From: a virus
Reading direction: 5' to 3' (one strand)
Virus record (IMG/VR): IMGVR_UViG_3300031372_000018
Coordinates: 1-42,774 of that record
DNA length: 42,774 bases
Shown here: positions 1 through 42,774 of the stretch, one piece after another
Layout: each line of letters starts with the position of its first letter
Numbering within the stretch: position 1 is the stretch's first letter
Made by a program: the position numbers and the translations under genes
Notes under the pieces: model-generated
What the model was told of the DNA's origin: nothing
Database searches by the model: none
The model's input: only the letters and a program-made list of their open reading frames with translations

Positions 1-127
1 CGCTCGCGATCCTTGTGATCCTTTATGCCCAGATGAACCGACTGCAGCGCAAAGCGCATGTCCTCCGCCTCGTCGATGTCCTTCTGCTTCTCGTTCCTGA
101 AAAGCGCCTGCAGATGGTTTGGCCGCG
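1..127. repeat. Window-end duplication (identical to 42648-42774)
   Basis: Base-for-base comparison of both ends shows 127 identical nt. This implies a circular or circularly permuted molecule with 42,647 bp of unique sequence. Confidence 0.95.
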
Positions 128-935
128 TAACGACAAAGACAAAATCACATGCTGCCTTGAGTGCGGAACTTCCTCGAATGCCGCGCTGCACGTCCTTACC
201 GGCGTGCGCCACGATCAGCACCGTGCAGTCATCAAGTTTAGATCGCCATGTAGAGCACGAGTTGATGAACGCTCCGGTATCCTGCGAGCTGTTCTCGTCG
301 CCATTAAAGCTTCGAGCCATGGTATCTATGACCACCATCTGAAAAGGCTTGCCGACCTTCTCCTGGGCTTTCATGCATGCCTCGATAAACCACTGAACCA
401 TGATCGGATCGTCCAGCATGACCGCGACCGGCAAGATCACCAATGGACCGTAATCGCGACCGTAGTGCCTGGACCATGCAACCGCGCGCTCCTTGAGTCC
501 CTGTGCGCCCTCTGCTGCTACATAAAGGACTGGGCCTTGGCCATCTACGTCGAAGCCATGCCATTGCTGTCCAGTGGCTACAGCAGCTGCCAGGTCCAGT
601 GCCATGAAGCTCTTGTAGCTACCTGATGGTCCATACAGGATGCCAAACCCATCGGCGGGAATGATCCCGTCAACGATCCATTTCTGGCTGGCCGAGTCGA
701 TCAGGCTCTGCTCGGCATCAAAGATCATGCGATCAAAAAACACATCACTTGGCTCTTTCGGGAAAAGCTCGGTATCGCTGTAGCCTTTCTCCTTTTCTGA
801 TTTCACCCCCTTGCGGATATCAACAACGTTGGACCTGTCGATCTCGTTTTGCGTCTCGGCGTACTGCTCCCATTGCCGATGCAGCTCGCCCGGATCGATC
901 TCTTCTTCTGTGCCTGGATTCATGTCATCAATCAT
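1..935 (-). CDS. RecA-fold replicative helicase / AAA_25 (RepA-like) ATPase, N-terminal part; continues across the junction into 42335-42647
   Basis: ATG at 935 is preceded by AAGAGG. My own translation gives Walker A YGPSGSYKS and Walker B-like QMVVIDTMARSF. The frame is continuous with track ORF 42335..42706 once the 127-nt duplication is collapsed (1248 nt in total, 415 aa). Confidence 0.8.
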   Translation of the reverse strand, partial: MIDDMNPGTEEEIDPGELHRQWEQYAETQNEIDRSNVVDIRKGVKSEKEKGYSDTELFPKEPSDVFFDRMIFDAEQSLIDSASQKWIVDGIIPADGFGILYGPSGSYKSFMALDLAAAVATGQQWHGFDVDGQGPVLYVAAEGAQGLKERAVAWSRHYGRDYGPLVILPVAVMLDDPIMVQWFIEACMKAQEKVGKPFQMVVIDTMARSFNGDENSSQDTGAFINSCSTWRSKLDDCTVLIVAHAGKDVQRGIRGSSALKAACDFVFVVTRPNHLQALFRNEKQKDIDEAEDMRFALQSVHLGIKDHKDRE

Positions 936-1293
936 CCTTGCCTCTTGATTCGATTATTCTGGTCAGCGCCAGGATGTAACGGTCAATCGACTGCTCATCC
1001 ATGGTCTGCCCGTTAGCAAACATTCCATCGCCCACGGCAACTATCGATGTCTCTTTGTCGAGCGCCTTGCCACGCAACTTGGCAGGCGTATAAGCATTAT
1101 CAATCTGCCGACATTTATTGCCATCCCATTCAAAAAACTGAGACTTGCTCCAATTCCCGAAAGCGCCACAATCCTCGAACCTTATTGCGAAGCCTTCATC
1201 TCTACCGATATTGAATCGGCGCAAGACTCCATCGCAAGGTATGGGGCGAAACTGCAAGCCTATGGCGGAATGGATGGATTTTTCGAAGTCCAT
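928..1293 (-). CDS. Hypothetical protein, possible primase-associated domain
   Basis: 121-aa track ORF whose stop overlaps the helicase start (ATGATTGATGA). The segment DGVLRRFNIGRDEGFAIRFEDCGAFGNWSKSQFFEW resembles the DGxxHRF...GxxGxW stretch I recall next to zinc-ribbon/Toprim primases of the P4/TraC type. This is memory only, not searched. Confidence 0.6.
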   Translation of the reverse strand: MDFEKSIHSAIGLQFRPIPCDGVLRRFNIGRDEGFAIRFEDCGAFGNWSKSQFFEWDGNKCRQIDNAYTPAKLRGKALDKETSIVAVGDGMFANGQTMDEQSIDRYILALTRIIESRGKDD

Positions 1294-1295
1294 GA

Positions 1296-1505
1296 TTAGG
1301 AGATCCGGGTGATGGTAATCCCACCGACTTTCTTTCTGGACTCGATAACACGGCCAGATCTGCGCCCAAAACCTAGGGCTGCTCCCCTTATCCTTTCGAC
1401 CTCGACCGTTGAGATGTCATCGAACTGCATGGACTGCCCTACCTCTATTAGCTCGAATTTGTACACCGAAGGACGTCCAGGCTTGCGCAAAATCGACTCA
1501 TTCAT
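1296..1505 (-). CDS. Small basic hypothetical protein, first gene of the leftward early operon
   Basis: 69-aa track ORF immediately downstream of the predicted leftward promoter. It has an AT-hook-like RKPGRPS segment and sits next to the CCGGACA repeat array. Function unknown. Confidence 0.6.
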   Translation of the reverse strand: MNESILRKPGRPSVYKFELIEVGQSMQFDDISTVEVERIRGAALGFGRRSGRVIESRKKVGGITITRIS

Positions 1506-1537
1506 ACAAAAAATCTCATTAGTGGGGTTTGCGAGAT

Positions 1538-1565
1538 TCTATACACCCTCAAGGCCACGTGTCAA
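1538..1565 (-). promoter_or_regulatory. Sigma70-like leftward early promoter
   Basis: On the minus strand: TTGACA (1560-1565), 16-nt spacer, TATAGA (1538-1543). It lies about 35 nt upstream of the ATG at 1505. Confidence 0.6.
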
Positions 1566-1635
1566 GCGGACTTAGCTATTTGTAGAGATAATATGTGGAT
1601 CGAAGATTTTCGCCTATACGATATCTATTATCTAT

Positions 1636-1873
1636 ACGGACAACCGTGTCCGGACCGGACATATTTCCGGACATCGTTAGCTTGCTATTGTCCGAAAATC
1701 CCGGACATGTGTCCGGTAGAAAAAATCCAGCAAATTCAATGGGATGAGAGAAATCCGGACAAGTCCGGACAAACGTGTCCGGGACAAAATAGGCCTCGAC
1801 ATAAGCCCGGACACACCCCCTTTCCCACTAAAGGGGAAGGGGGTTGTCCGGATGTCCGGCGCTTTTTGTCCGA
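1636..1873. repeat. Iteron-like array of CCGGACA / TGTCCGG motifs
   Basis: There are 11 perfect and 4 one-mismatch copies in about 240 nt. Perfect CCGGACA starts at 1655, 1667, 1701, 1755, 1765 and 1807. Perfect TGTCCGG starts at 1647, 1710, 1776, 1845 and 1853. One-mismatch copies start at 1636, 1689, 1780 and 1867. Confidence 0.9.
1816..1843. other. G/C-rich hairpin inside the repeat array
   Basis: CCCCCTTTCCC (1816-1826) pairs with GGGGAAGGGGG (1833-1843) across the loop ACTAAA. That gives 10 Watson-Crick pairs plus one T:G. No T-run follows, so it is not a classic terminator. Confidence 0.5.
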
Positions 1874-1888
1874 GAAGCAGGAAAATGC

Positions 1889-1917
1889 TTGACCTTCAGC
1901 ATGGGTGTATCTATAGT
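1889..1917 (+). promoter_or_regulatory. Sigma70-like rightward promoter upstream of the packaging operon
   Basis: TTGACC (1889-1894), 17-nt spacer, TATAGT (1912-1917). Confidence 0.65.
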
Positions 1918-1978
1918 CATCTCATCGGGTTCGATCCTTCGATCCCAACCGCAGTACCAACCGCCAGAGAGGGCATCC

Positions 1979-2215
1979 ATGATGGGCATAAAGCAGAACT
2001 ACAAAACCGTGCGCAACTTCACCTGGGTCTACTATGTGATTGCGTTTGTGTTCTTTGTCCTGGCAATACAGGCGTTTCCAACTTCGCGCAATCCAGATGG
2101 CTCTTACATGATGTTCGTGTTCTGGGTCGCGATTGCAACTGGTACTGCTTTTGGGGCTGGGCGTAATAAGCGGGCAGATGCAGATAAAACTGCTCAACAG
2201 CATCGGGCGGGTTGA
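1979..2215 (+). CDS. Small membrane protein (two predicted TM segments)
   Basis: ATG at 1979 is preceded by AGAGAGGG; 78 aa. Hydrophobic segments are WVYYVIAFVFFVLAIQAF and MMFVFWVAIATGTAFGA. The upstream part of the 123-aa track ORF lies in the repeat array and is not used. Confidence 0.6.
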   Translation: MMGIKQNYKTVRNFTWVYYVIAFVFFVLAIQAFPTSRNPDGSYMMFVFWVAIATGTAFGAGRNKRADADKTAQQHRAG

Positions 2216-2217
2216 TT

Positions 2218-2814
2218 ATGAATATTGAACAGAAAGCATTGTTTGATCGGCTAACTCAGCTACAGCAAAGAGTTGCCGTAAACGTGCTTTCTGGTATGAC
2301 GCAGAGGCAGGCTTATTATGAAGCTGGAGGGACAGCAGAAAACGAGAAAGCCGCCGATGCAATTGCTTCAAGAATGCTAAGCGACGCTAGGGTAATTGCT
2401 TTCATGGACGCCATGAAGCTGGAGGCCGTTTCCAATGCCGTCATGAGCCGCCAGGAGGCGCTGGAGAAGCTTTCCAATCTTGCGCGCACCGACCTCAAGG
2501 ATCTGGTCGAATTCGGCTCATACGACCTAGGAGAGGACGCAGACGGAAATCCGATTGTGCAGGCTTCCTGGAAGATCAAGGATTCGGCATTGCAGGACCC
2601 GGCGAAGATGTCCGCCATCTCCGAGCTGACAGCTGGCAAGGAAGGCATCAAGATCAAGACGCACTCGCCGATAACTGCTATCCAGCAACTCGCCAAGATG
2701 CAGGGCTGGGAGTCGGCCAGCAAGCATGAGATCAGCGGACCCAATGGCGGCCCAGTGCTTACCCGCGACGTCAGCGACATGACCGATGATGAGCTAGCTG
2801 CATTCCTGCCATGA
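2218..2814 (+). CDS. terS: Terminase small subunit
   Basis: 198 aa from ATG 2218 (the track ORF starts at TTG 2212). The stop overlaps the terL start (ATGA at 2811). The N-terminal segment LTQLQQRVAVNVLSGMTQRQAYYEAG is HTH-like, as I recall for Terminase_2-type small subunits. Confidence 0.75.
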   Translation: MNIEQKALFDRLTQLQQRVAVNVLSGMTQRQAYYEAGGTAENEKAADAIASRMLSDARVIAFMDAMKLEAVSNAVMSRQEALEKLSNLARTDLKDLVEFGSYDLGEDADGNPIVQASWKIKDSALQDPAKMSAISELTAGKEGIKIKTHSPITAIQQLAKMQGWESASKHEISGPNGGPVLTRDVSDMTDDELAAFLP

Positions 2815-4202
2815 TCAGTAGCGCCGATGCCGCCAAGGAGCTTCTGAGGCGTCGGCAGGCGCGCAAGTCCCTTCTGTCATTCATCTGCTACATCAACCCC
2901 GAATACATCGTCAGCGACTTCTCGATCATGGTCTGCTCGGCCCTGGAGAAGTTCATAGCCGATTGCATGGAGGGAGTGCGTCCCGTCCTGATCCTTCAAG
3001 CACCGCCACAGCACGGCAAGTCGGACATCGTCTCGCGCTACCTGCCAGCGTTCGTGTTTGGTCACTACCAGGATCTGCGCATTGCTGGCCTGTCCTACTC
3101 CAAGGACTTGGCCACCGACATGAACCGTGATGTGCAGCGGATCATGATGTCGCCTGAGTATCACAAGCTATTCCCGGACTCTTCGCTCAATGCTAAGCGA
3201 GCCGTGCACGTCGACATCGAGGCCAAGCGCAACAGCGAGACATTCGAATTGGTTGGGCACAAGGGCACTTACGTCGGCCAGGGCGTTGGCGGCCCACTGA
3301 CTGGTAAGCGTGTCGACTTCGGCATCATCGATGATCCCATCAAAAACTCCAAGGAAGCGCTGAGCCCCGCCATCAAGGATTCGATCTGGAAGTGGTACGG
3401 TTCGACCTTCCTGACCCGCCTGAGCAAGAATGCAGGCCACATCATCATGGCTACTCGTTGGGCCACTGACGACCTTTCAGGCCGAGTGCTGGCTGCCAAC
3501 GCTAAGGCAAGGCTACTGAGCTTTCCTGCCATCGATGTCGCTGGCAATGCGCTTATTCCCGAGCTGCATCCTGCCGATAAGCTGCTAGAGACCAAAGAGG
3601 TCATTGGTGATTACTTCTGGTCGGCCATGTACCAGCAGTCGCCTAAGACCATTGGTGGCGCGATCTTCAAGGATGAGGGTGTCAGGTACTACCTGCCCAA
3701 AGATCTACCGACCAAATTCGACAAGATCATCCAATCCTGGGACATGACCTTTAAGGACTCGGAAGGCACAGACTATGTTGCGGGCCAGGTTTGGGCAAAA
3801 CTTGGGTCGAACGTCTACCTTATCGATCGCAAGAAGGAGCGCATGTCGTTCACCAAGTCCAAGCAGGCAGTAGTTGATATGACGGCCAGGCATCCCCAGG
3901 CAATGCGCAAGCTGATCGAAGACAAGGCCAATGGCCCTGCTATCATTGACTCGCTCAAGAATGAGATCCACGGCATAATCCCGGTAGAGCCAGATGGCAG
4001 CAAGATAGCTCGCGCGCACGCTGTGACAGCTGTGTGGGAGGCTGGCAACGTATGGCTACCACATCCTGACATCGCGCCATGGGTTAAGGAATTCGTCGAC
4101 GAAGTGACAACCTTCCCCGCAGGCGCGCACGATGACGAGGTTGATGCCATGACGCAGGCGCTGCGAGACCTGTATAGTGCCAAGCGTGGATTCTTCGGTT
4201 AA
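2811..4202 (+). CDS. terL: Terminase large subunit
   Basis: 463 aa. Walker A-like QAPPQHGKS, Walker B-like VDFGIIDDP, and the C-terminal nuclease acidic motif AGAHDDEVDAMTQAL. Confidence 0.9.
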   Translation: MISSADAAKELLRRRQARKSLLSFICYINPEYIVSDFSIMVCSALEKFIADCMEGVRPVLILQAPPQHGKSDIVSRYLPAFVFGHYQDLRIAGLSYSKDLATDMNRDVQRIMMSPEYHKLFPDSSLNAKRAVHVDIEAKRNSETFELVGHKGTYVGQGVGGPLTGKRVDFGIIDDPIKNSKEALSPAIKDSIWKWYGSTFLTRLSKNAGHIIMATRWATDDLSGRVLAANAKARLLSFPAIDVAGNALIPELHPADKLLETKEVIGDYFWSAMYQQSPKTIGGAIFKDEGVRYYLPKDLPTKFDKIIQSWDMTFKDSEGTDYVAGQVWAKLGSNVYLIDRKKERMSFTKSKQAVVDMTARHPQAMRKLIEDKANGPAIIDSLKNEIHGIIPVEPDGSKIARAHAVTAVWEAGNVWLPHPDIAPWVKEFVDEVTTFPAGAHDDEVDAMTQALRDLYSAKRGFFG

Positions 4203-4222
4203 ACAGATCAACAGGAGCGCCT

Positions 4223-5725
4223 ATGTGGCCGTTCAGCAAGAAACAGACTCCGGCCAGCGATGTGGCTGCTCCGACTGCAAAGGGCGTGTTCAGCACTGAC
4301 GTTGGCGTGCTGGGCGCGCTCGTCAAGAAGCAGGAGCGGGCTGATATCTATTATCCGCAGCCTGCTGGTGCATTCGCCCAGGATGAGCATTTCAGCCCGA
4401 CTGCTGGCTATCCGCTCAAGGGGCCAAGCTTTGGTGGTGTGCCTGAATCGCAGTTGATGTGGTATGCGAGCCAGTCCTTCATCGGCTACCAGGCGTGCGC
4501 GGTCATCGGTACGCACTGGCTCGTGGACAAGGCCTGCACTACGCCCGCCGAGGATGCTCTGCGGATGGGCTACCAGATCGATTGCGACAGCGCCGAGGCC
4601 GTTGACCTTCTGAACGATGTCGACGAGAAGTACCAGATCGATGCCCACATGAAGGAGTACATCGCCTTCGGTCGCGTGTTCGGTGTTCGCGTTGCACTGT
4701 TCGTGGTTGAGTCGACCGATCCTGAGTACTACATCAAGCCGTTCAATCCAGACGGCGTCGCGCCTGGATCTTATCGCGGCATTAGCCAGGTAGACCCGCA
4801 GTGGATTACCCCCGTGTTGACGCATGCGAACCTAAGCAACCCTGCTGGCAAGGATTTCTATCTGCCGCTGTTCTATCGCATCGGTAGCCAGCTCTATCAT
4901 CGTTCGCACCTGTCGATCTACATCCCCTATCCGGTCACAGACACGCTGAAGCCGATGTATCAGTTCGGCGGCGTCTCTGTGCCCCAGCGGATCTATGAGC
5001 GCGTTTATGCGGCTGAGCGTTCGGCGAATGAGGTGCCGCAGTTGCTGATGACCAAGCGGCTGACTAACCTGAAGGTCAGTGAGGCAGCCATGGCCAGCCC
5101 TGAAGCCCTGGCTGCCAACCTGGAGCAATGGACGCTGCTGCGTGATAACCATGGGGTGCGCGTAGGAGCTGGCGAGGAAGAGGTTAGCCAGATCGACACT
5201 TCCCTTGCTGACCTGCCATCAAGCACCATGCTCAGCTATCAGCTGGTCGCGGCCTGCGCTGGCATCCCCGCCACCAAGCTGATCGAGACCACTCCGATTG
5301 GCTTCGCATCGAGCGGCGAGTACGAGTCCGAGAGCTATCGTCAGGTGCTTGAGTCGGTGCAGAAGCATCTTGATCCGATGCTAAAGGGTCACTATCTGCG
5401 CATGATGCGATCCGATGTAGCGCCATCGCTTGGAGTTGACCCGATGAAGGTTGGAATAAAGTGGGCGCCACTGGATAGCCCGACTGCTGCCGAGGCTGCA
5501 GACGTGGCGCTGAAGAAAGCGCAGACCGATCAGATCTACGTCGCCATCCAGGCCATTGACGGCCAGGACGTGCGCACCAAGCTCAAGGATGATGAGGATA
5601 GCCAGTATCAGAACCTGGCTGACATTGAGGATCCGCTCAATGTGCCTCAGGGCAACGTTGACCCATTGACGGGCGAGCCTGTAGCTGAGACTATAGAGCC
5701 TCAAGTAAATGAGGGGGTTTTGTGA
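4223..5725 (+). CDS. Portal protein (DUF1073-like)
   Basis: 500 aa directly after terL, with an AGGAG RBS. Size and position are typical of portals. The family assignment is recalled, not searched. Confidence 0.8.
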   Translation: MWPFSKKQTPASDVAAPTAKGVFSTDVGVLGALVKKQERADIYYPQPAGAFAQDEHFSPTAGYPLKGPSFGGVPESQLMWYASQSFIGYQACAVIGTHWLVDKACTTPAEDALRMGYQIDCDSAEAVDLLNDVDEKYQIDAHMKEYIAFGRVFGVRVALFVVESTDPEYYIKPFNPDGVAPGSYRGISQVDPQWITPVLTHANLSNPAGKDFYLPLFYRIGSQLYHRSHLSIYIPYPVTDTLKPMYQFGGVSVPQRIYERVYAAERSANEVPQLLMTKRLTNLKVSEAAMASPEALAANLEQWTLLRDNHGVRVGAGEEEVSQIDTSLADLPSSTMLSYQLVAACAGIPATKLIETTPIGFASSGEYESESYRQVLESVQKHLDPMLKGHYLRMMRSDVAPSLGVDPMKVGIKWAPLDSPTAAEAADVALKKAQTDQIYVAIQAIDGQDVRTKLKDDEDSQYQNLADIEDPLNVPQGNVDPLTGEPVAETIEPQVNEGVL

Positions 5726-5940
5726 TGTCGAAGATTAATGATGGTGGTTGTGCATTTCCGTGTGAAACCTCGATGTATGCATCGTCAGGCAGGGGCATGT
5801 CTCTGTGGGATTACTTTGCGGGCAAGGCGATGCAGGGCATCTGTGCTCACGCTGACACCTGGGGTTTGAGCACCAACGAAAATATTGCGACAGCTTCTTA
5901 CGATCTGGCCGACGCCATGCTTGCGGAGCGCGCAAAATGA
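5725..5940 (+). CDS. Conserved small phage protein, function unknown
   Basis: ATG 5725 overlaps the portal stop (GTGATG), with a GAGGGGG RBS. The GGCAFP and GMSLWDYFAGKAM motifs recur in small phage proteins I recall. Confidence 0.7.
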   Translation: MSKINDGGCAFPCETSMYASSGRGMSLWDYFAGKAMQGICAHADTWGLSTNENIATASYDLADAMLAERAK

Positions 5941-6197
5941 AATATCTAAATATCGAGTCCGATAGGTTTTCATGCGCGAGCAGTTCGCATACTCGCGAAG
6001 ATCACCATATAGAGCTTGTAGTTGAGGTTGATCAGAGCGCGGTCATCAATCAATTCACAGCCAAGGAGATCGTATCTTCTTTTGACATCGGTTCCCTGCT
6101 CGATGAGATCGGCATGTCGATTGCTCTTGAGCATTATGCGGGTCTTGGCAATATCACCATGGAAGACTTCCGCAGTATTCTGGAGCGTGCGAAATGA
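5937..6197 (+). CDS. Hypothetical protein
   Basis: 86-aa track ORF with ATGA overlaps to both neighbours. Confidence 0.65.
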   Translation: MKYLNIESDRFSCASSSHTREDHHIELVVEVDQSAVINQFTAKEIVSSFDIGSLLDEIGMSIALEHYAGLGNITMEDFRSILERAK

Positions 6198-10006: not shown

Positions 10007-11044
10007 CTACCACAGGACCTCTTGGCCTCCGCTGTAGGCGAATGTTGGGGAGCCTGCAGTGTTCACCGTTCGGATCCTGACGTACTTGCCTGCAGGAATG
10101 AATGCGTTCAGCGGCACCGTCTGCACTGTGTTCGCATTGAGCACCCCGCCCACTCCGCTCGTGCCCGAGAACGCCTGCACAAGGTTTGTAGTCATGGCTG
10201 CGTTGTCAGCGTATTCGAGGATGACTGTGCCGCGTGATCCTGCGACCAGCAGCGCGGTTACCGTCACGTCTACGCCATAGTAGACCGTTGCGGGTCTTGT
10301 GGCGCTGAGCTGGAAGGCCGTGTTCAGTGGGCGGGTTGCTGGCGATGCAGACGGTGATATTGCAGGACCCTGCGGCCCGATTGCGCCTGTTGCGCCTGTG
10401 TCGCCCTTATCGCCTTTCGGGCCAGTAGCGCCTTGAGGTCCTGCAACAGTGCTTGCAGGACCCATAGCTCCGGTTGCGCCCGTATCACCTTTCGGTCCAG
10501 GGATTCCTTGCGGACCCATCGCGCCCGTCTCGCCCCTTGCTCCAGGGTCTCCCGTAAACCCTCTAGGTCCGACCTGGCCATCTGGGCCTACAGGACCAGC
10601 TGCGCCCGTGCTACCAGTTGGGCCTACTGCGCCTTGCGGTCCAGTATCGCCCCTGTCACCCTTGGGTCCGGTATCCCCTTGAGGCCCTTGAGGCCCCGCA
10701 ACGCCTTGCGCCCCATTCGAACCGTTTGAGCCTGGATCTCCCTTAGGGCCTTGCGCTCCAGTGTCACCTTTAGGTCCTGCCTCACCCTGCTGGCCTGGAT
10801 CGCCATTCATCCCGGTAGGTCCGCGCGGGCCAGCCATGCCGTCGTTGCCGGGGTCCCCTTTGTCACCTTTTGCGCCACGATCTCCCTTTTCACCTTGTGG
10901 TCCAGCTGGCCCGGTATCACCCTTCGGACCTGCTGGCCCGACATTCTCAGCGGTATCAGTCCGCTCTTCGAGGATTGCGATTCGCTCACTAAGATCCGAC
11001 ATCTCATCCTGGGAAACGCCAGGGTCGTGAATTGTGCCGGTCAT
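10007..11044 (-). CDS. Collagen-like triple-helix repeat protein with globular C-terminal domain
   Basis: 345 aa. A short N-terminal coiled coil (LSERIAILEERT) is followed by about 54 uninterrupted G-X-Y triplets, a 4-residue break, and about 9 more triplets (hand count). A beta-rich C-terminal domain of about 115 aa follows. Confidence 0.85.
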   Translation of the reverse strand: MTGTIHDPGVSQDEMSDLSERIAILEERTDTAENVGPAGPKGDTGPAGPQGEKGDRGAKGDKGDPGNDGMAGPRGPTGMNGDPGQQGEAGPKGDTGAQGPKGDPGSNGSNGAQGVAGPQGPQGDTGPKGDRGDTGPQGAVGPTGSTGAAGPVGPDGQVGPRGFTGDPGARGETGAMGPQGIPGPKGDTGATGAMGPASTVAGPQGATGPKGDKGDTGATGAIGPQGPAISPSASPATRPLNTAFQLSATRPATVYYGVDVTVTALLVAGSRGTVILEYADNAAMTTNLVQAFSGTSGVGGVLNANTVQTVPLNAFIPAGKYVRIRTVNTAGSPTFAYSGGQEVLW

Positions 11045-37059: not shown

Positions 37060-37743
37060 TCAAGGCATTTCAGGCCAAAACCTGTTGCCCTTCTTAATGT
37101 TTTCCAGCTTTGAAATTATTTGTAGATTCGCTTCGCAGTGAAGCCCACAGACAAGCTTAGAGTTAAGCGGGACTATATGGTCTACTTGGTAATCTTTTCC
37201 CGATATGCGCGAGGCCAGATAAGCTCTCCTGTAAATCTTATCTATTGCCTGATGGTCAGCCCATCCAGGTACTGCCCGGATCTTAGCAGACCTCCTTTTT
37301 GCATTTATTCTACGAATAACGAATCTGTTATTTTTACGATAATTCCGATCAAATTCAGAAATCTTCTTTTTATTTTTTGCTCGGTACTTAAGCTTGGATA
37401 TTAAAATTGATTTTTGCTGATCATGATCAATATTTCTTCTGAGACTAAGAACATAATCTCGGTTACTCCAATACCAATATTTGCTTCTAAGGGCTACCAA
37501 GCGCCTGTTTATCCTGGAATATTCTGCCCTTTGCTCGGATATCTGGTCTGCATTCTTTACCCTATACGCCTCCATCCTTTCTTTTATCGCGATCTTGTTA
37601 GCCAATGCGTAAGATTTGTATTTTTCAGCCGCGCAAGATTTGCAGTAGGACTGAACACCGCTAGCCCTCCGCTTACATTTGCTGAAACTTTCTAAAGTCT
37701 TGAACGTGTCGCACGATACACAAAGGCTAAAGGTTGACATCAT
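37060..37743 (-). CDS. HNH endonuclease (free-standing, homing-type), AT-rich
   Basis: About 227 aa. HNH core is VDHIVPLNSKLVCGLHCEANLQIISKLENIKKGN, with N-terminal CxxC...CxxC. A hand count gives 29 G+C in 100 nt at 37301-37400, against 57 in 100 at 36101-36200. The exact start is uncertain (ATG 37743 or 37740). Confidence 0.8.
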   Translation of the reverse strand: MMSTFSLCVSCDTFKTLESFSKCKRRASGVQSYCKSCAAEKYKSYALANKIAIKERMEAYRVKNADQISEQRAEYSRINRRLVALRSKYWYWSNRDYVLSLRRNIDHDQQKSILISKLKYRAKNKKKISEFDRNYRKNNRFVIRRINAKRRSAKIRAVPGWADHQAIDKIYRRAYLASRISGKDYQVDHIVPLNSKLVCGLHCEANLQIISKLENIKKGNRFWPEMP

Positions 37744-38626
37744 CAGCCTCCGGCACATCAGCGATCGCCATCAGCAACTCAGCCAGGATTCCCGCATCAA
37801 CCTCGACACGCTCAGCGCTGTTGCCGAGAATTATAGACTCCAAGAGCGACGGCTCAATGGACTTGTAGACAGCCCTGGCAGCCCATTCCAGCGCATCGGG
37901 CATCTTTGCCTTGACCTTCTTGACCTTTGGCTCTTTCGTAGCGGCAGCGGCTGTTACACGGTCTTTACCAAGCTCTGCAGCTACATCCTTGCGGCGCTCG
38001 ATCTCGGCTGGAGCATCCGCCTTGAATTCACGAATGATCTTGACAGCTTCGGTTGGCGAAACCACGCCAGCGCTGACAGCCTGGTGCACCTCTTCGCCGC
38101 CATCTGCGAGCAGTAACATCTGGTCGACGTGCGCACGCGAGCGATTCACCATCTTGGCGATCTCGGCAGCGCTGAGCGAATCCATGTCGCGCATGTCGCG
38201 GTAGACCTTGGCCTCACCTACCTTGCTCAAGGGGAGCTGGTTGTTGCTGGTCACGATGCGCGCGCGACGCTCGGCCATGGTGCCTTTGAATGCGGTGGCG
38301 CTGATGTATTCCAGCGGCTCACCGTCGACCTGAGCGCCTTCAAGCAGCAGTTCGCGGTAGCAGGCAGTGCGGCAGTGACCCTCAACCACCTCGGTGGCGC
38401 CCGTCTCAGGATTGATGGCCACTTCGATCGGAGGCAGCTTGCCGCCAGAGAGAACAAAGGTCTTCATGGCGTCGATGTGCGCGCGCAGCTCTGCAGGATC
38501 GTTGAAGCGGCGACTGTCATTGAAACCCTCAACGATGACCAGGCCGTCGATCTTGACGCGGAACAGGTCGCCACGTTTGACGATCTTGTCGCTGACCAGC
38601 TTGTTCATGGTGATTGGTGCGTTCAT
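37727..38626 (-). CDS. ParB/Srx N-terminal domain protein
   Basis: 299 aa from ATG 38626 (RBS GAGAGG). The track start at 38683 lies upstream of the predicted -10. Motifs are PPIEVAINPETGATEVVEGHCRTACY and the HTH-like SAAEIAKMVNRSRAHVDQML. Confidence 0.65.
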   Translation of the reverse strand: MNAPITMNKLVSDKIVKRGDLFRVKIDGLVIVEGFNDSRRFNDPAELRAHIDAMKTFVLSGGKLPPIEVAINPETGATEVVEGHCRTACYRELLLEGAQVDGEPLEYISATAFKGTMAERRARIVTSNNQLPLSKVGEAKVYRDMRDMDSLSAAEIAKMVNRSRAHVDQMLLLADGGEEVHQAVSAGVVSPTEAVKIIREFKADAPAEIERRKDVAAELGKDRVTAAAATKEPKVKKVKAKMPDALEWAARAVYKSIEPSLLESIILGNSAERVEVDAGILAELLMAIADVPEADDVNL

Positions 38627-38643
38627 TAACTTACCTCTCTGAT

Positions 38644-38672
38644 TTACATTCATCCCGCTATAGGCCATACTA
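38644..38672 (+). promoter_or_regulatory. Possible rightward promoter of the regulator/primase operon
   Basis: TTTACA (38644-38649), 17-nt spacer, CATACT (38667-38672). Its -10 overlaps the -10 of the leftward promoter. Confidence 0.4.
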
Positions 38673-38697
38673 TAAGCCAGCAATTAATAACTATCAA
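38669..38697 (-). promoter_or_regulatory. Sigma70-like leftward promoter of the ParB-helicase-recombination operon
   Basis: On the minus strand: TTGATA (38692-38697), 17-nt spacer, TATAGT (38669-38674). The spacer begins with GTTATTAAT, which gives GATAGTTATTAAT when joined to the -35. Confidence 0.6.
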
Positions 38698-38707
38698 GGG
38701 CGCTATC

Positions 38708-39226
38708 GTGAATCAACGAAAAAAACTGGACGACAAGCTCGACGCAACCGAGGCAGGCCGCTCGCTCAAGCTGGCGCTGGAGAAGGCAGGAGGGCCCAAG
38801 GGTCTGCGTGATCTGCTATCTATCCCCAAACAAACCGTCGACAACTGGATATACATACAGAGCCGCGTCAGCCGTCGCGGCGCCATCGCCATCGACGCCC
38901 TAAACATCGGCGTCACTAAAGAACAACTGCGCCCGGATGTGAAGGACTGGACCGCTGCAGGCATGCCGCAGAAATGCCATGCCGACGAGGCTGCCAAAAC
39001 TCCACGAGGTCGCGCCTTACTCAAGCTGCTCGAGACCACCAATGGTAGCGCAAAGGCATTTGCCAGGCTCATCGGCGTCCGCTCGATTGCCATGTGGGTT
39101 GAGCGTGGCTATGTACCGCAGCGGCATGTGGATCGCATCATTGCGCTGCCTGAATTCAATGGCCTGACGCGAGCAGATGTGCGGCCTGACTTGCACGAGT
39201 TGGATTACGAGGAGAGCGCGGCATGA
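38708..39226 (+). CDS. Transcriptional regulator with two tandem Cro/YdaS-like HTH domains
   Basis: 172 aa from GTG 38708 (RBS AAGGG). An internal duplication is visible: GGPKGLRDLLSIPKQTVDNWIYIQSRVSRRGAIAIDALNIGVTKEQLRPDV versus NGSAKAFARLIGVRSIAMWVERGYVPQRHVDRIIALPEFNGLTRADVRPDL. Confidence 0.6.
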   Translation: MNQRKKLDDKLDATEAGRSLKLALEKAGGPKGLRDLLSIPKQTVDNWIYIQSRVSRRGAIAIDALNIGVTKEQLRPDVKDWTAAGMPQKCHADEAAKTPRGRALLKLLETTNGSAKAFARLIGVRSIAMWVERGYVPQRHVDRIIALPEFNGLTRADVRPDLHELDYEESAA

Positions 39227-39486
39227 AATCGAATCACAGCCATTACTTCAAGGATGTTGCAGGTCTTGAGCAGATCGATGTATATCGGGTCTTGGCGCTA
39301 TTTAAGGTGAGCGACCCATGCATTCAGCACGCCATCAAAAAACTGCTTTGCGCTGGCCAACGAGGATCTAAGTGCGTGGCCAAAGATGTTCAGGAGGCCA
39401 TAGACGCGCTTGAACGGTCGCTTGATATGCGCACAGAGGACATCCTTTCTGCCAGGCCTACTATTGAGCCAGTCATCAATGGCTAA
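39223..39486 (+). CDS. Conserved small phage protein, function unknown (87 aa)
   Basis: ATGA coupling. The HYFKDV...IDVYRVL...HAIKKLLCAGQRG pattern recurs in phage proteins I recall. Confidence 0.65.
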   Translation: MKSNHSHYFKDVAGLEQIDVYRVLALFKVSDPCIQHAIKKLLCAGQRGSKCVAKDVQEAIDALERSLDMRTEDILSARPTIEPVING

Positions 39487-40351
39487 CTACGACTACAAGG
39501 ACGTATCCAGCGCCGCAACAGGCTTATGGGATGCTATCCTGCCCGCCATGGGCGTAGAGCTACGCAAGCTCGACAAGAACGGCCCTTGCGTGCTGTGCGG
39601 AGGAAATGACCGCGCACACTTCTTCGAGCGCCAGGGCCGCATCATGAATTACTGCCGCCACGGCTGCGGTAACTCTGGCCCTGGCAACGAGGTCAGCACT
39701 CCCGAGCATCTACTCATGGAGGTCAATCGTTGGTCATTTCCCGAGATGGTTGCGGCGGTTGCCGAATTCCTCAATGTCACGCCACGCGAACAGCTTGACC
39801 AATATCGCGTCATCGCCGCCACCCGAGTGCAAAAACAGCTGGTGCGACCAGACACTCACATCGAAAATCCCGAGCGCGCCAAGTCGCTGCTCGCCCAATG
39901 CACAGATATCGAAACCCACATGTACCTGCTTTCCAACAACACCGCCGCATTCACAACTCAGAGATCTCTCAAGGACACGCTGGTCGTACAGCTGCACAAC
40001 CAAGCGGGCGAACTGGTAAACCTTGCCGCCATCAAGGCCAATGGCGATATCCGCTATTGCGCCCAAGGTATCAGCTATGGCGCCATAGCCACCCTTGAGC
40101 CCGCGCACGAGCCGGATGGCGCAACGCTTCTGACCATCGACTATGCCGAGGCCTGGCGGATATGGTGGATGATGAAGGGCAAGTCCAAGGTCATCTGCGC
40201 CATGAGTTGGGAGAATGCCAAGTGGATTGCAGACAAGCAGCGCGAACGATTCACGCACGTCGCATGCGGATCCGAGCACGCCGAATACTTCGAGGACTAT
40301 GGCCACGAGGTGATCTTGATTCCGGCGCCATACGCTGCTAAGGTGGCCTGA
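39479..40351 (+). CDS. Primase-like protein: P4-type zinc ribbon plus degenerate Toprim-like region
   Basis: 290 aa from ATG 39479. GPCVLCGGNDRAHFFERQGRIMNYCRHGCG matches the Prim_Zn_Ribbon pattern CPxCGGxDRF...C..CG. In the C-terminal region I could not find a clear Toprim E or DxD. Confidence 0.6.
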   Translation: MANYDYKDVSSAATGLWDAILPAMGVELRKLDKNGPCVLCGGNDRAHFFERQGRIMNYCRHGCGNSGPGNEVSTPEHLLMEVNRWSFPEMVAAVAEFLNVTPREQLDQYRVIAATRVQKQLVRPDTHIENPERAKSLLAQCTDIETHMYLLSNNTAAFTTQRSLKDTLVVQLHNQAGELVNLAAIKANGDIRYCAQGISYGAIATLEPAHEPDGATLLTIDYAEAWRIWWMMKGKSKVICAMSWENAKWIADKQRERFTHVACGSEHAEYFEDYGHEVILIPAPYAAKVA

Positions 40352-40898: not shown

Positions 40899-41117
40899 CT
40901 AGTCCTCGGGGTAGGGGTTGGGTTCGGCTGGGTCACTGGCCTCAATAGATCCGCTTCCACCACAATCAGGGCAAGAATCCATGTTAGGTTCCGGAGGCTG
41001 CCATTCGCCGAAATATTGATAACCTCCTACGAATACCTCTCCTGAACCGCCGCAAGTCTCGCACTCATCATCCTCTGGCGGGTCTAGTGGGCGGTCGCCG
41101 ATGTAGATGCGGTTCAT
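40899..41117 (-). CDS. Mini zinc-finger protein with two DnaJ-type CxxCxGxG motifs (72 aa)
   Basis: CETCGGSG and CPDCGGSG motifs in an acidic, Pro-rich context. ATGA overlap with the HNH stop. Confidence 0.65.
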   Translation of the reverse strand: MNRIYIGDRPLDPPEDDECETCGGSGEVFVGGYQYFGEWQPPEPNMDSCPDCGGSGSIEASDPAEPNPYPED

Positions 41118-41707
41118 TGGTCATTCCCTCTGACTTTTAGATTCTTTGGAAGTGCCGCCCAACTAGCTGGATGCATAGCGCCCTTGCTGGTATTGCATGC
41201 AGGACAAAGCAGCATGAGGTTAGATGGCCAGTTGGTACCGCCCAACTTTATTGGGACTATATGATCAACATGATAGCGCTTAGATATATTCGTGGAACAC
41301 CAGAAGCATCTGCTGAATTGAGACCGCATCATATTAACTATATCTTGCTTCGAAAAAAATCCCTCAAGTTTTGACCTTCTTTTTACTCTAGCTATCATCT
41401 CATCCCTATTGGCTTGATAATGTTTCCTCTGAGACTCCCTTGTCTTCTCAGGAAAATTTGTTCTATACCTAGCCATATATTCGCGCTTTTTCTGTAGATG
41501 CTTTTGGCTGTTTATCCTACTAATTTCAGCATGAAACAAAGGATCTGAAGCATACCTATCTCTCATTTTTATCCTATGACAAGATACACAATTTCCATTT
41601 TTTGAATACCTTATATCTATATGTTTTCTGCAGCAAGGCAGCCCAGTAAAATAATGAGAAAGCCCAAACTCTATTGCCACCCTTCTTGATATTAAATGAG
41701 CAATCAT
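41114..41707 (-). CDS. HNH endonuclease (second copy, AT-rich)
   Basis: 197 aa from ATG 41707 (the track ORF extends to 41860 across the upstream gene end). HNH core is VDHIVPIKLGGTNWPSNLMLLCPACNTSKG. A hand count gives 40 G+C in 100 nt at 41401-41500. Confidence 0.75.
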   Translation of the reverse strand: MIAHLISRRVAIEFGLSHYFTGLPCCRKHIDIRYSKNGNCVSCHRIKMRDRYASDPLFHAEISRINSQKHLQKKREYMARYRTNFPEKTRESQRKHYQANRDEMIARVKRRSKLEGFFSKQDIVNMMRSQFSRCFWCSTNISKRYHVDHIVPIKLGGTNWPSNLMLLCPACNTSKGAMHPASWAALPKNLKVRGNDQ

Positions 41708-41744
41708 GGTCGGTAGCCTGGGGTTTTTATGGTCCAGATGCGTT

Positions 41745-42035
41745 TCATTGCTCCAGCCTCTTATGGAATGATTCCAAAGCCTGCTTGCGGCGGTTGATAA
41801 AGTCCTTCTCGACCTTAGCGTACTTGGAGCCCTTACCCGCTCGATCGCTAAAATATTCAAGCCAGAGCTTTGGTGAAAATCTGCAGAACTCCTCGATCTG
41901 CATACGAAGGAATTTGCATTTCATTTGCAGTGCAAATTCCTCTTTTTGCATGTCCAGCATTTCCGAGCGCAGAGTCTCAAGCTCATTCTTGAGAGCATTG
42001 ATGGTTGCGTCCTTTGACCGTGATGAAAATATCAT
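41745..42035 (-). CDS. Hypothetical coiled-coil protein (96 aa)
   Basis: Track ORF with ATGA coupling. Sequence is heptad-like. Confidence 0.6.
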   Translation of the reverse strand: MIFSSRSKDATINALKNELETLRSEMLDMQKEEFALQMKCKFLRMQIEEFCRFSPKLWLEYFSDRAGKGSKYAKVEKDFINRRKQALESFHKRLEQ

Positions 42036-42334: not shown

Positions 42335-42774
42335 TCAGATTTGCACATCGCCCACGGAAATAAATTTCCCGTGCTTCATGAGATAGCCCTTGTCTTTGCT
42401 CTTGGCCAGATTGCGTGAAAATGACTTCCGCGCACTGTCCGGCTTGGTGCCCTCGGAGATCTTCTTGCCCATGAACTCCTTCTTGAGGTCGTCCTCGGTC
42501 ATAGACTTACCGCTGGCCGTGTTTGCCTTGACGATGCGGACCAGGTCTTTCAGATCGCCAACCTCGAACACGGTCATTTCCTCGTCATCTTCCTTGTCCG
42601 GATCCGCCATTGAGCCCTTCGACTCAAGGATGGGCACCAGGCTTTTGCGCTCGCGATCCTTGTGATCCTTTATGCCCAGATGAACCGACTGCAGCGCAAA
42701 GCGCATGTCCTCCGCCTCGTCGATGTCCTTCTGCTTCTCGTTCCTGAAAAGCGCCTGCAGATGGTTTGGCCGCG
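42335..42774 (-). CDS. C-terminal part of the RecA-fold helicase that starts at 935 (wraps the junction)
   Basis: The stop is at 42335-42337. Bases 42648-42774 duplicate 1-127. Same reading frame as the 1-935 segment. Confidence 0.8.
   Translation of the reverse strand, partial: RPNHLQALFRNEKQKDIDEAEDMRFALQSVHLGIKDHKDRERKSLVPILESKGSMADPDKEDDEEMTVFEVGDLKDLVRIVKANTASGKSMTEDDLKKEFMGKKISEGTKPDSARKSFSRNLAKSKDKGYLMKHGKFISVGDVQI
42648..42774. repeat. Window-end duplication (identical to 1-127)
   Basis: See the feature at 1-127. Confidence 0.95.

Follow-up and report, generated by a model that had tools for sequence, protein, structure and literature searches.

Near one end of a viral DNA of 42,774 nucleotides (IMG/VR record IMGVR_UViG_3300031372_000018, analysed at its full length and hereafter called the window), the heptamer CCGGACA recurs in both orientations in a non-coding block that separates two divergent groups of genes. 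Bases 1-127 of the window are repeated at 42648-42774, and this 127-bp terminal overlap indicates a circular or circularly permuted phage genome of 42,647 bp. The array sits in a 473-bp intergenic region (1506-1978), outside any initiator open reading frame (ORF). The leftward operon beside it comprises, in this order, the genes for p69, p121 and a 411/415-residue helicase of the AAA_25 family, small ORFs and an HNH endonuclease gene. Sequence comparisons suggest that the block at 1636-1873 is likely to be the iteron-type replication origin of the phage, its heptamers being bound by the phage's own RepA-like helicase, which would act as the initiator. The features of the locus are as follows.

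1..935, minus strand: 5′ part of the gene for the AAA_25 (RepA-like) helicase, with a start codon at 923 or 935; the gene runs across the circular junction.
42335..42647, minus strand: 3′ part of the helicase gene, of which about 42338-42571 encodes the C-terminal domain of three helices and a beta-hairpin.
928..1293, minus strand: p121, a conserved partner of the helicase.
1296..1505, minus strand: p69, a small basic protein (69 residues, GRP motif) encoded by the first gene of the leftward operon.
1536..1565, minus strand: sigma-70-like promoter, TTGACA-18-TAGAAT, 11/12 matches (a consensus match only), predicted for p69, p121 and the helicase.
1636..1716: left iteron set, seven copies, at 1636 (+, one mismatch), 1647 (-), 1655 (+), 1667 (+), 1689 (-, one mismatch), 1701 (+) and 1710 (-).
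1717..1754: central AT-rich spacer of 38 bp, 32% GC, which parts the array into its two iteron sets.
1755..1873: right iteron set, eight copies, at 1755 (+), 1765 (+), 1776 (-), 1780 (+, one mismatch), 1807 (+), 1845 (-), 1853 (-) and 1867 (-, one mismatch).
1807..1851: palindrome, made of iteron, CCCCCTTTCCC, loop ACTAAA, GGGGAAGGGGG and inverted iteron, with its core stem at 1816-1843.
1889..1917, plus strand: sigma-70-like promoter, TTGACC-17-TATAGT, 10/12 matches, predicted for the 78-residue membrane ORF, terS and terL.
1979-2215, plus strand: 78-residue membrane ORF, to the right of the array and followed by terS and terL.

A motif search of the window located 11 perfect copies of CCGGACA at 1647-1859 (six on the plus and five on the minus strand) and four one-mismatch copies (1636-1642, 1689-1695, 1780-1786 and 1867-1873), which together make 15 heptamers; the one-mismatch copy at 1780-1786 overlaps the perfect copy at 1776-1782 by 3 nt. 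These counts are those of a preliminary description made from the letters alone, and the inverted pairs (1647-1661 and 1701-1716) and tandem pairs (1755/1765 and 1845/1853) that it listed are all present. The composition-aware expectation for 213 bp is 0.035 perfect copies (Poisson tail about 1e-16), and in the whole window there are 17 copies against 4.75 expected, a number reached in none of 100 shuffles. The two iteron sets are roughly symmetrical, each holding one composite CGGACAA(A/C)CGTGTCCGG. The window has no second CCGGACA cluster; the other six copies are scattered, at chance expectation. Extra copies at 42436-42442 and 42595-42601 fall within the helicase ORF, are read there as P-D-S (in KPDSARK, the start of the putative recognition helix) and P-D-K, respectively, and are probably coding coincidences.

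Two AT-rich tracts accompany the heptamers. The outer one, at 1571-1640, has exactly 23 G+C in 70 nt (33%), with TATCTAT TATCTAT at 1622-1635, just as first described; it lies outside the main array, directly upstream of the leftward -35, and could equally well be promoter-upstream DNA. The other is the spacer at 1717-1754, which the preliminary description did not mention. Relatives of this phage (see below) have an AT-rich tract at the equivalent central position, and the spacer, with iterons on both sides, matches their layout better than 1571-1640 does. On this comparison the unwinding element would lie at 1717-1754 and not in the outer tract, to which that role had been assigned. The G/C hairpin reported at 1816-1843 has arms at 1816-1826 and 1833-1843, forming 10 Watson-Crick pairs and one G.T pair; with its flanking inverted iterons (1807-1851) it folds as single-stranded DNA with -19.7 kcal/mol (z = -4.55). 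The divergent promoters said to surround the array correspond to the sigma-70-like sites at 1565-1536 (leftward) and 1889-1917 (rightward). An intrinsic terminator was considered for the hairpin and rejected as unlikely: a terminator scan did not flag it, no T-run follows and it lies upstream of both predicted promoters. The GC skew flips sign near 2 kb, but could not be used as evidence because the gene orientation switches at the same place.

A protein search returned about 370 homologues of the helicase, one of which is named 'helicase RepA family' by its source. In the contigs of seven homologues, from a sub-lineage of stand-alone helicases, the order array, p69, p121, helicase is shared and the repeats are lineage-specific, as listed here with the identity of each helicase to that of the window.

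L202: 72% identical; CCGGACA.
L207: 48% identical; CCGGACA.
L208: 53% identical; CCGGACA.
L204: 58% identical; TCAGACA.
L203: 48% identical; GAGGACA.
L206: 49% identical; GGTTCA.
L209: 42% identical; GAAACA/GGAACA, downstream of the helicase gene.

The p69 gene was found in synteny (p69, p121, helicase) in L202, L203, L204, L206, L207 and L208. The neighbouring terminase genes of the sub-lineage are of unrelated types (Terminase_2, GP3_package, Sf6_terminase) or absent, and according to a table of shared proteins, the motif is not tracked by TerS, TerL, ParB, the primase or the Cro-like protein. When the window and six relatives are drawn with p69 rightmost, all seven loci show two to three direct iterons, then a pyrimidine-run/purine-run palindrome between inverted iterons, then two iteron clusters with an AT-rich tract between them, and finally the p69 promoter region. 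The palindrome layout, with differing stem and iteron sequences, is present in all seven p69-type loci displayed and also in a further locus, L070; the form iteron, CCCC, loop, GGGG, iteron occurs in L070 and, reading the listed stems by eye, in at least 12 of the 28 fusion-helicase loci described below. The stem varies between loci yet stays paired, and its flanks switch with the iteron (GGTTCA/TGAACC in L206). We infer that the palindrome may be a helicase loading or priming site.

No match to p69 was found in Pfam, PHROG or the PDB, and only three database homologues were retrieved; its AlphaFold2 (AF2) model is unusable, with a predicted local distance difference test score (pLDDT) of 45.8. 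The protein and its relatives have in common an N-terminal G-R-P-x-x-Y-x-F segment that resembles an AT-hook core. For p121, Pfam and PHROG searches gave no match, nor did a comparison with the primase part of the fusion homologues. Between the array and p69, several relatives carry a conserved AAAACCTGACTTTTGGGTAAGGTTTAA-like sequence (L202:4520-4560, L204:4050-4080, L208:~290-320 and L001:~4220-4245) that is absent from the window and may be their p69 promoter or a binding site for another protein. In L202, the closest helicase relative, about 0.9 kb without a called gene (L202:3353-4250) separates the terminase-side genes from the CCGGACA array; no Rfam family was found in L202 or in the window.

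Relatedness of the terminase did not predict the motif. Among 80 viral loci with a TerL 66-83% identical to that of the window, none has more than two CCGGACA copies in 300 bp. A k-mer density scan run de novo showed that L001 and L002, the closest phages, have an equivalent array of GAGCACA copies at the same position, with p69 again beside it; L070 and L071 carry a GCGCAAC array directly after the helicase homologue, and L011 has a GGTTGCA array, with GGTTGCAG in both orientations around a very AT-rich core (L011:1089-1350), about 5 kb upstream of terL. As judged from these sequences, the element is conserved as a type while its repeat sequence changes. Repeats of another kind, five to eight copies of (C)TGCGCA(A), occur in L024:5150-5290 and in some 30 comparable loci with a related TerL. 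Counted from an ATG at ~5014 they lie about 100-280 bp downstream, with a start at about 130 bp in the L024 group; they are apparently inside a putative ORF upstream of terL and might represent either a pac site or repetitive coding sequence. Although they seemed analogous at first, they were set aside as probably a different feature. Proteus RS51pmB and Stenotrophomonas B2, whose TerL is the closest among known phages, have none of the replication-module genes of the window around their terminase genes and were uninformative, and a megablast of 1-6000 against INPHARED phages gave no match.

The motif itself led to a different set of loci. A scan of viral contigs for three spaced copies (CCGGACA..CCGGACA..TGTCCGG) returned at least 119 loci, with a GC content of about 0.4-0.74; 85 have at least five copies in 350 bp. 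When the ORFs of the window were compared with these motif-selected loci only the helicase recurred, in 23 loci (E < 1e-5); TerL was found in four and every other protein in at most two. By ORF clustering, a (Prim-Pol/PriCT_2-)AAA_25 protein is encoded in 28 of the loci, and in all 28 the array starts between -253 and +36 bp relative to the 3′ end of the helicase gene; in several relatives it overlaps the last 100-250 bp of that gene. With a hidden Markov model of the family, the AAA_25 helicase was detected in 32 of the 85 array loci. A single-sequence helicase scan of viral contigs found nothing, whereas the motif scan and an alignment-based genome scan did succeed.

The latter scan, of bacterial genomes, gave 80 loci with helicase homologues (in Xenorhabdus, Photorhabdus, Serratia, Pectobacterium, Halomonas and others). 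Between -120 and +330 bp from the stop codon of the helicase, 48 of the 80 loci hold a 6-mer in five or more copies and 30 in seven or more, against 7.6% and 0.6%, respectively, of 1071 control windows from the same loci. Here too the array is co-inherited with the helicase family, and the repeat sequence tracks the lineage of the helicase C-terminal domain, as follows.

NVKNFSRWLTKLEQD: TCCTCA(C), about 20 loci.
KKF[AST]RWLDKLEKD: AAGTGG, 12-13 loci.
KVRKSF.RWLDKLESE: GCGGCA, four loci.
NTKHFTRWLQKLTDDD: TCCCCA, two loci.
Halomonas type: ACCCGG, three loci.

The helicase matches PF13481 (AAA_25) with E = 1.5e-40. Its AF2 model, built with 55 homologues (mean pLDDT 87.8), consists of a RecA-like core followed, at residues 338-410, by three helices (338-356, 363-376 and 381-398) and a beta-hairpin (strands 401-404 and 407-410), with a pLDDT per ten-residue block of about 90-97 over most of this domain. 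The topology of the model makes a winged helix the high-confidence prediction for the C-terminal domain. Foldseek matched the core to RadA/Rad51, DnaB and the RepA protein of RSF1010 (1G8Y, 1NLF, 1OLO), with a TM-score against RSF1010 RepA of 0.68-0.72, normalised to the target; RSF1010 RepA, of which 242-254 residues are resolved, is without the extra C-terminal domain. In each of the 28 pairs compared, divergence is faster in the C-terminal domain than in the ATPase core. In its third helix a D[ST]xx[KR]x[FA]xR segment is conserved among the CCGGACA-associated proteins, and the GCGCAAC-associated protein of L070 differs there.

The following genes outside the intergenic region bear on how such an origin would work and on what else the array might be.

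2218-2814, plus strand: terS (Pfam and PHROGs).
2811-4202, plus strand: terL (Pfam and PHROGs).
37727-38683: ParB-like protein (PF17762, phrog_1033).
38708-39226: Cro/YdaS-like regulator.
39410..40351, plus strand: DNA primase (phrog_510, E = 1.4e-24).

The replication region elsewhere in the genome holds the ParB-like protein, the Cro/YdaS-like regulator, the primase and an SF2 helicase, and among its annotated ORFs no O-like initiator, or any separate initiator, was recognised. In the model that we consider likely, the AAA_25 helicase, a hexameric RecA-fold enzyme, would read the 15 CCGGACA-type heptamers through its C-terminal winged helix and so serve, as a self-loading helicase, as its own initiator. 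Its subunits would collect on the two mixed-orientation iteron sets around the 38-bp spacer, the spacer (1717-1754) and/or the palindrome (1807-1851) would open up, after which hexamers would be loaded and replication would proceed bidirectionally, with the separate primase providing the primers. The position of the origin between divergent early and late promoters may mean that transcription and origin firing are coupled.

Several observations weigh against this reading. The array of the window is not at the 3′ end of the helicase gene but about 0.7 kb upstream of it, in the same module and between two promoters, and in L001 and L002, which have the analogous GAGCACA array, a DUF3987 protein replaces the AAA_25 helicase. 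The motif-selected loci were chosen by the motif itself and are a biased set, and in 53 of the 85 viral loci with a CCGGACA array no helicase of the AAA_25 family was found; in 30 of these 53 the array is less than 2.2 kb from the end of the locus, and in 33 the GC content is at least 0.65. Because such helicase-less loci occur, and because some CCGGACA arrays lie within unrelated ORFs lacking a Pfam match, the motif is not exclusive to the AAA_25 helicase family. Many of the bacterial loci are closely related, so that the correspondence between repeat and C-terminal domain holds at the level of lineages and is no count of independent events. A profile of the winged-helix domain gave nothing significant in Pfam or the PDB, and no residue-level recognition code relating winged-helix residues to repeat bases could be derived: the protein P0025 retains 'PDT' but its repeat is GGTTCA, and P0022 and P0023 share 51% identity in the winged helix, yet their repeats are CCGGACA and TCAGACA. 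The array could also have an operator role, alone or in addition, because it lies between divergent promoters.

Among the helicase-less CCGGACA arrays (for example L142:5852-6035, L197:6316-6454, L153:927-1240 and L130:3822-4168) many are regular 17-bp palindromes (CCGGACA-N3-TGTCCGG or the reverse), and some arrays lie inside ORFs of 329-380 residues without a Pfam match. Initiators of other families might employ this heptamer too, and these arrays would then be their origins.

The preliminary description had left four functions open for the block, an origin, a centromere, a TerS site and an operator, and had named the 69-residue protein, ParB, TerS and the helix-turn-helix regulator as candidate binders. 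Comparative co-occurrence favours the origin and disfavours the other three; none of the proposed binders tracks the motif, and the protein that does co-occur with it, the AAA_25 helicase, was not on that list. Of the proteins named, p69 deserves most attention: it might bind the heptamers as an origin-specific initiator or as a repressor of the divergent promoters, the helicase being recruited by protein-protein contact. Its gene is the first beside the array, a position kept in every stand-alone-helicase relative and even in L001 and L002 with their DUF3987 protein, and p69 is divergent, as a specificity factor might be. Nevertheless, we think a p69-bound array unlikely, since a p69 profile found no member in the 119 motif-selected viral loci and none was seen among the 28 fusion-helicase loci with a CCGGACA array. 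Moreover, p69 of L204 is visibly close to that of L208 when aligned, yet the arrays are TCAGACA and CCGGACA, whereas the p69 proteins of the window and L207 are very different and both go with CCGGACA; nor does p69 have a recognisable DNA-binding fold, its AF2 model being unusable. If instead the array were solely a multi-site operator, with a regulator or the helicase controlling the divergent early and late promoters and replication starting elsewhere, its location exactly between two strong promoter-like sites would be accounted for (15 nt separate the end of the last copy, at 1867-1873, from the rightward -35), and the Cro/YdaS-like regulator would be a candidate. No heptamer copy overlaps either -35 or -10 hexamer, however, the regulator is essentially absent from the motif-selected loci, and the counterpart of the array in 28 viral loci and in 48 bacterial ones is found at the 3′ end of the helicase gene and not between promoters, which makes this explanation quite improbable.

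The remaining two functions have still less in their favour. Some small terminases use short-repeat arrays, as at lambda cosB and P1 pac, and the array lies upstream of the terS-terL operon, with terS 350 bp downstream, as would suit a packaging recognition site (pac or cosB-like) bound by TerS. This is very unlikely here: the array is present in none of the 80 loci with a 66-83% identical TerL, and phages whose TerL is 80-83% identical carry different motifs. Thus L206 has an 81% identical TerL but GGTTCA, and L001 a 56% identical TerS but GAGCACA; conversely, CCGGACA arrays are found with a Terminase_2 TerS, with a GP3_package-type TerS (L202) and without a terminase nearby (L208 and the 28 fusion loci). 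Least credible of the alternatives, and in our view extremely unlikely, is a centromere of the parS kind to which the ParB-like protein would bind. P1 parS uses heptamer boxes and a ParB-like gene is present in the window, but it is separated from the array by 5.6 kb across the circle, a ParB homologue occurs in only one of the 119 motif-selected loci, and among the helicase-module relatives only L206 has one (50% identical), with GGTTCA as its repeat.

Apart from these subjects, two regions of the genome stand out in composition. Two HNH/endonuclease VII-like genes in the replication region (37060-37758 and 41114-41860) lie in its two kilobases of lowest GC content (0.46 and 0.44, against 0.55 overall), which suggests that they are inserted homing-endonuclease genes. 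An ORF of 345 residues at 10007-11044, on the minus strand within the rightward structural module, coincides with a kilobase of 62% GC and strongly negative AT skew, and could be a moron or a foreign insert.

The proposed mode of action has its closest parallel in the Rep proteins of the staphylococcal pathogenicity islands (SaPI). In this experimentally characterised system the self-loading Rep helicases recognise iterons of 5-6 nt by means of a winged helix at their C terminus; immediately downstream of the rep gene an AT-rich region is flanked by 6-12 of these iterons in opposite orientations, and the proteins are grouped with AAA+ helicases of the superfamily 3 (SF3)/MCM-like type (PMC9371898). 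In the phage, likewise, short iterons in both orientations flank an AT-rich region and the helicase has a predicted C-terminal winged helix; in most of the relatives the array is immediately downstream of the helicase gene, and the primase is fused or separate. The phage differs from SaPI in that its iterons are of 7 nt and its proposed origin is displaced to a site between divergent promoters upstream of the operon, and the iteron-flanked C-run/G-run palindrome is unmentioned in the portion of the SaPI paper used here (PMC9371898). Its helicase has the RecA fold of the RSF1010 RepA/DnaB type and not an AAA+ SF3/MCM-like fold. We propose by analogy that it would work like the SaPI Rep family; with its PF13481 match and its RecA fold, it is no homologue of it.

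Other replicons share parts of this arrangement. The alpha protein of the satellite phage P4 is a multifunctional primase-helicase whose C-terminal winged helix binds octamer iterons (TGTTCACC) in both orientations; its helicase is of the SF3 type rather than AAA_25, and P4 requires a second repeat region (crr), unlike the window, which has no second repeat cluster. The closest structural relative with a role in replication is the RepA-type hexameric helicase of the IncQ plasmid RSF1010, with which the phage enzyme shares its core. The oriV of RSF1010 combines iterons, an AT-rich stretch and hairpins (ssiA and ssiB), and RepA depends on a separate initiator, RepC, that binds 20-bp direct iterons; in the phage, by contrast, the repeats are 7-mers in both orientations and the helicase has its own predicted winged helix. 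In ori-lambda, iterons and an AT-rich region lie inside gene O. Some CCGGACA arrays in other viral contigs are likewise inside an ORF (L142 and L197), whereas the array of the window is intergenic and an O-like initiator was not found among the annotated replication-region ORFs.

The helicase of pRN1 belongs to SF3. The origin of this plasmid lies just downstream of the gene for its prim-pol-helicase, ORF904, and integrity of a stem-loop is required for replication; the authors noted the stem-loop in several bacteriophages too (PMC4234260). The fusion relatives resemble ORF904 in joining Prim-Pol and helicase domains in a protein with an origin just downstream of its gene. Unlike the phage, pRN1 is an archaeal plasmid, its stem-loop is of about 100 nt, and iterons are not mentioned in the abstract of the paper (PMC4234260).

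A literature search with CCGGACA/TGTCCGG and 'iteron' gave irrelevant papers only, and a limited search found no description of an origin type that combines an AAA_25 helicase with iterons. An iteron origin read by the winged helix of the helicase itself has precedents, one of them in P4. The same is known from SaPI (PMC9371898). What is apparently new here is that the helicase is of the RecA-fold, RSF1010 RepA type, that a palindrome flanked by iterons is conserved, and that the origin stands at the head of the operon, between promoters. More tentatively, and as a possibility that we would not call probable, AAA_25/RepA-fold helicases with a C-terminal winged helix may form a large class of self-loading initiators that extends over phages, satellites and the integrated elements of Proteobacteria and beyond. 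A fixed grammar would govern their origins: an AT-rich core, short iterons specific to the lineage and, flanked by iterons, a C-run/G-run palindrome that would serve as the loading/priming site through cruciform or hairpin extrusion, and the CCGGACA-reading module would have been swapped between unrelated initiator families. Such an exchange would explain the same heptamer array in more than 100 viral contigs with GC contents from about 0.4 to 0.74.

The origin reading gives a conspicuous non-coding block a function and a likely binding protein. It would also yield a search rule: in many uncharacterised phages, prophage-like islands and satellites, the origin would be expected where short repeats form an array beside an AAA_25 helicase with a C-terminal winged helix, either at the 3′ end of its gene or at the head of its operon. 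The motif variants (CCGGACA, TCAGACA, GAGGACA, GGTTCA, TCCTCAC, AAGTGG and GCGGCA) would be material for studies of winged-helix specificity and for orthogonal replicons. We know of no solved example of a loading site for a self-loading helicase of the RecA fold, and the iteron-flanked palindrome is a testable candidate for one.

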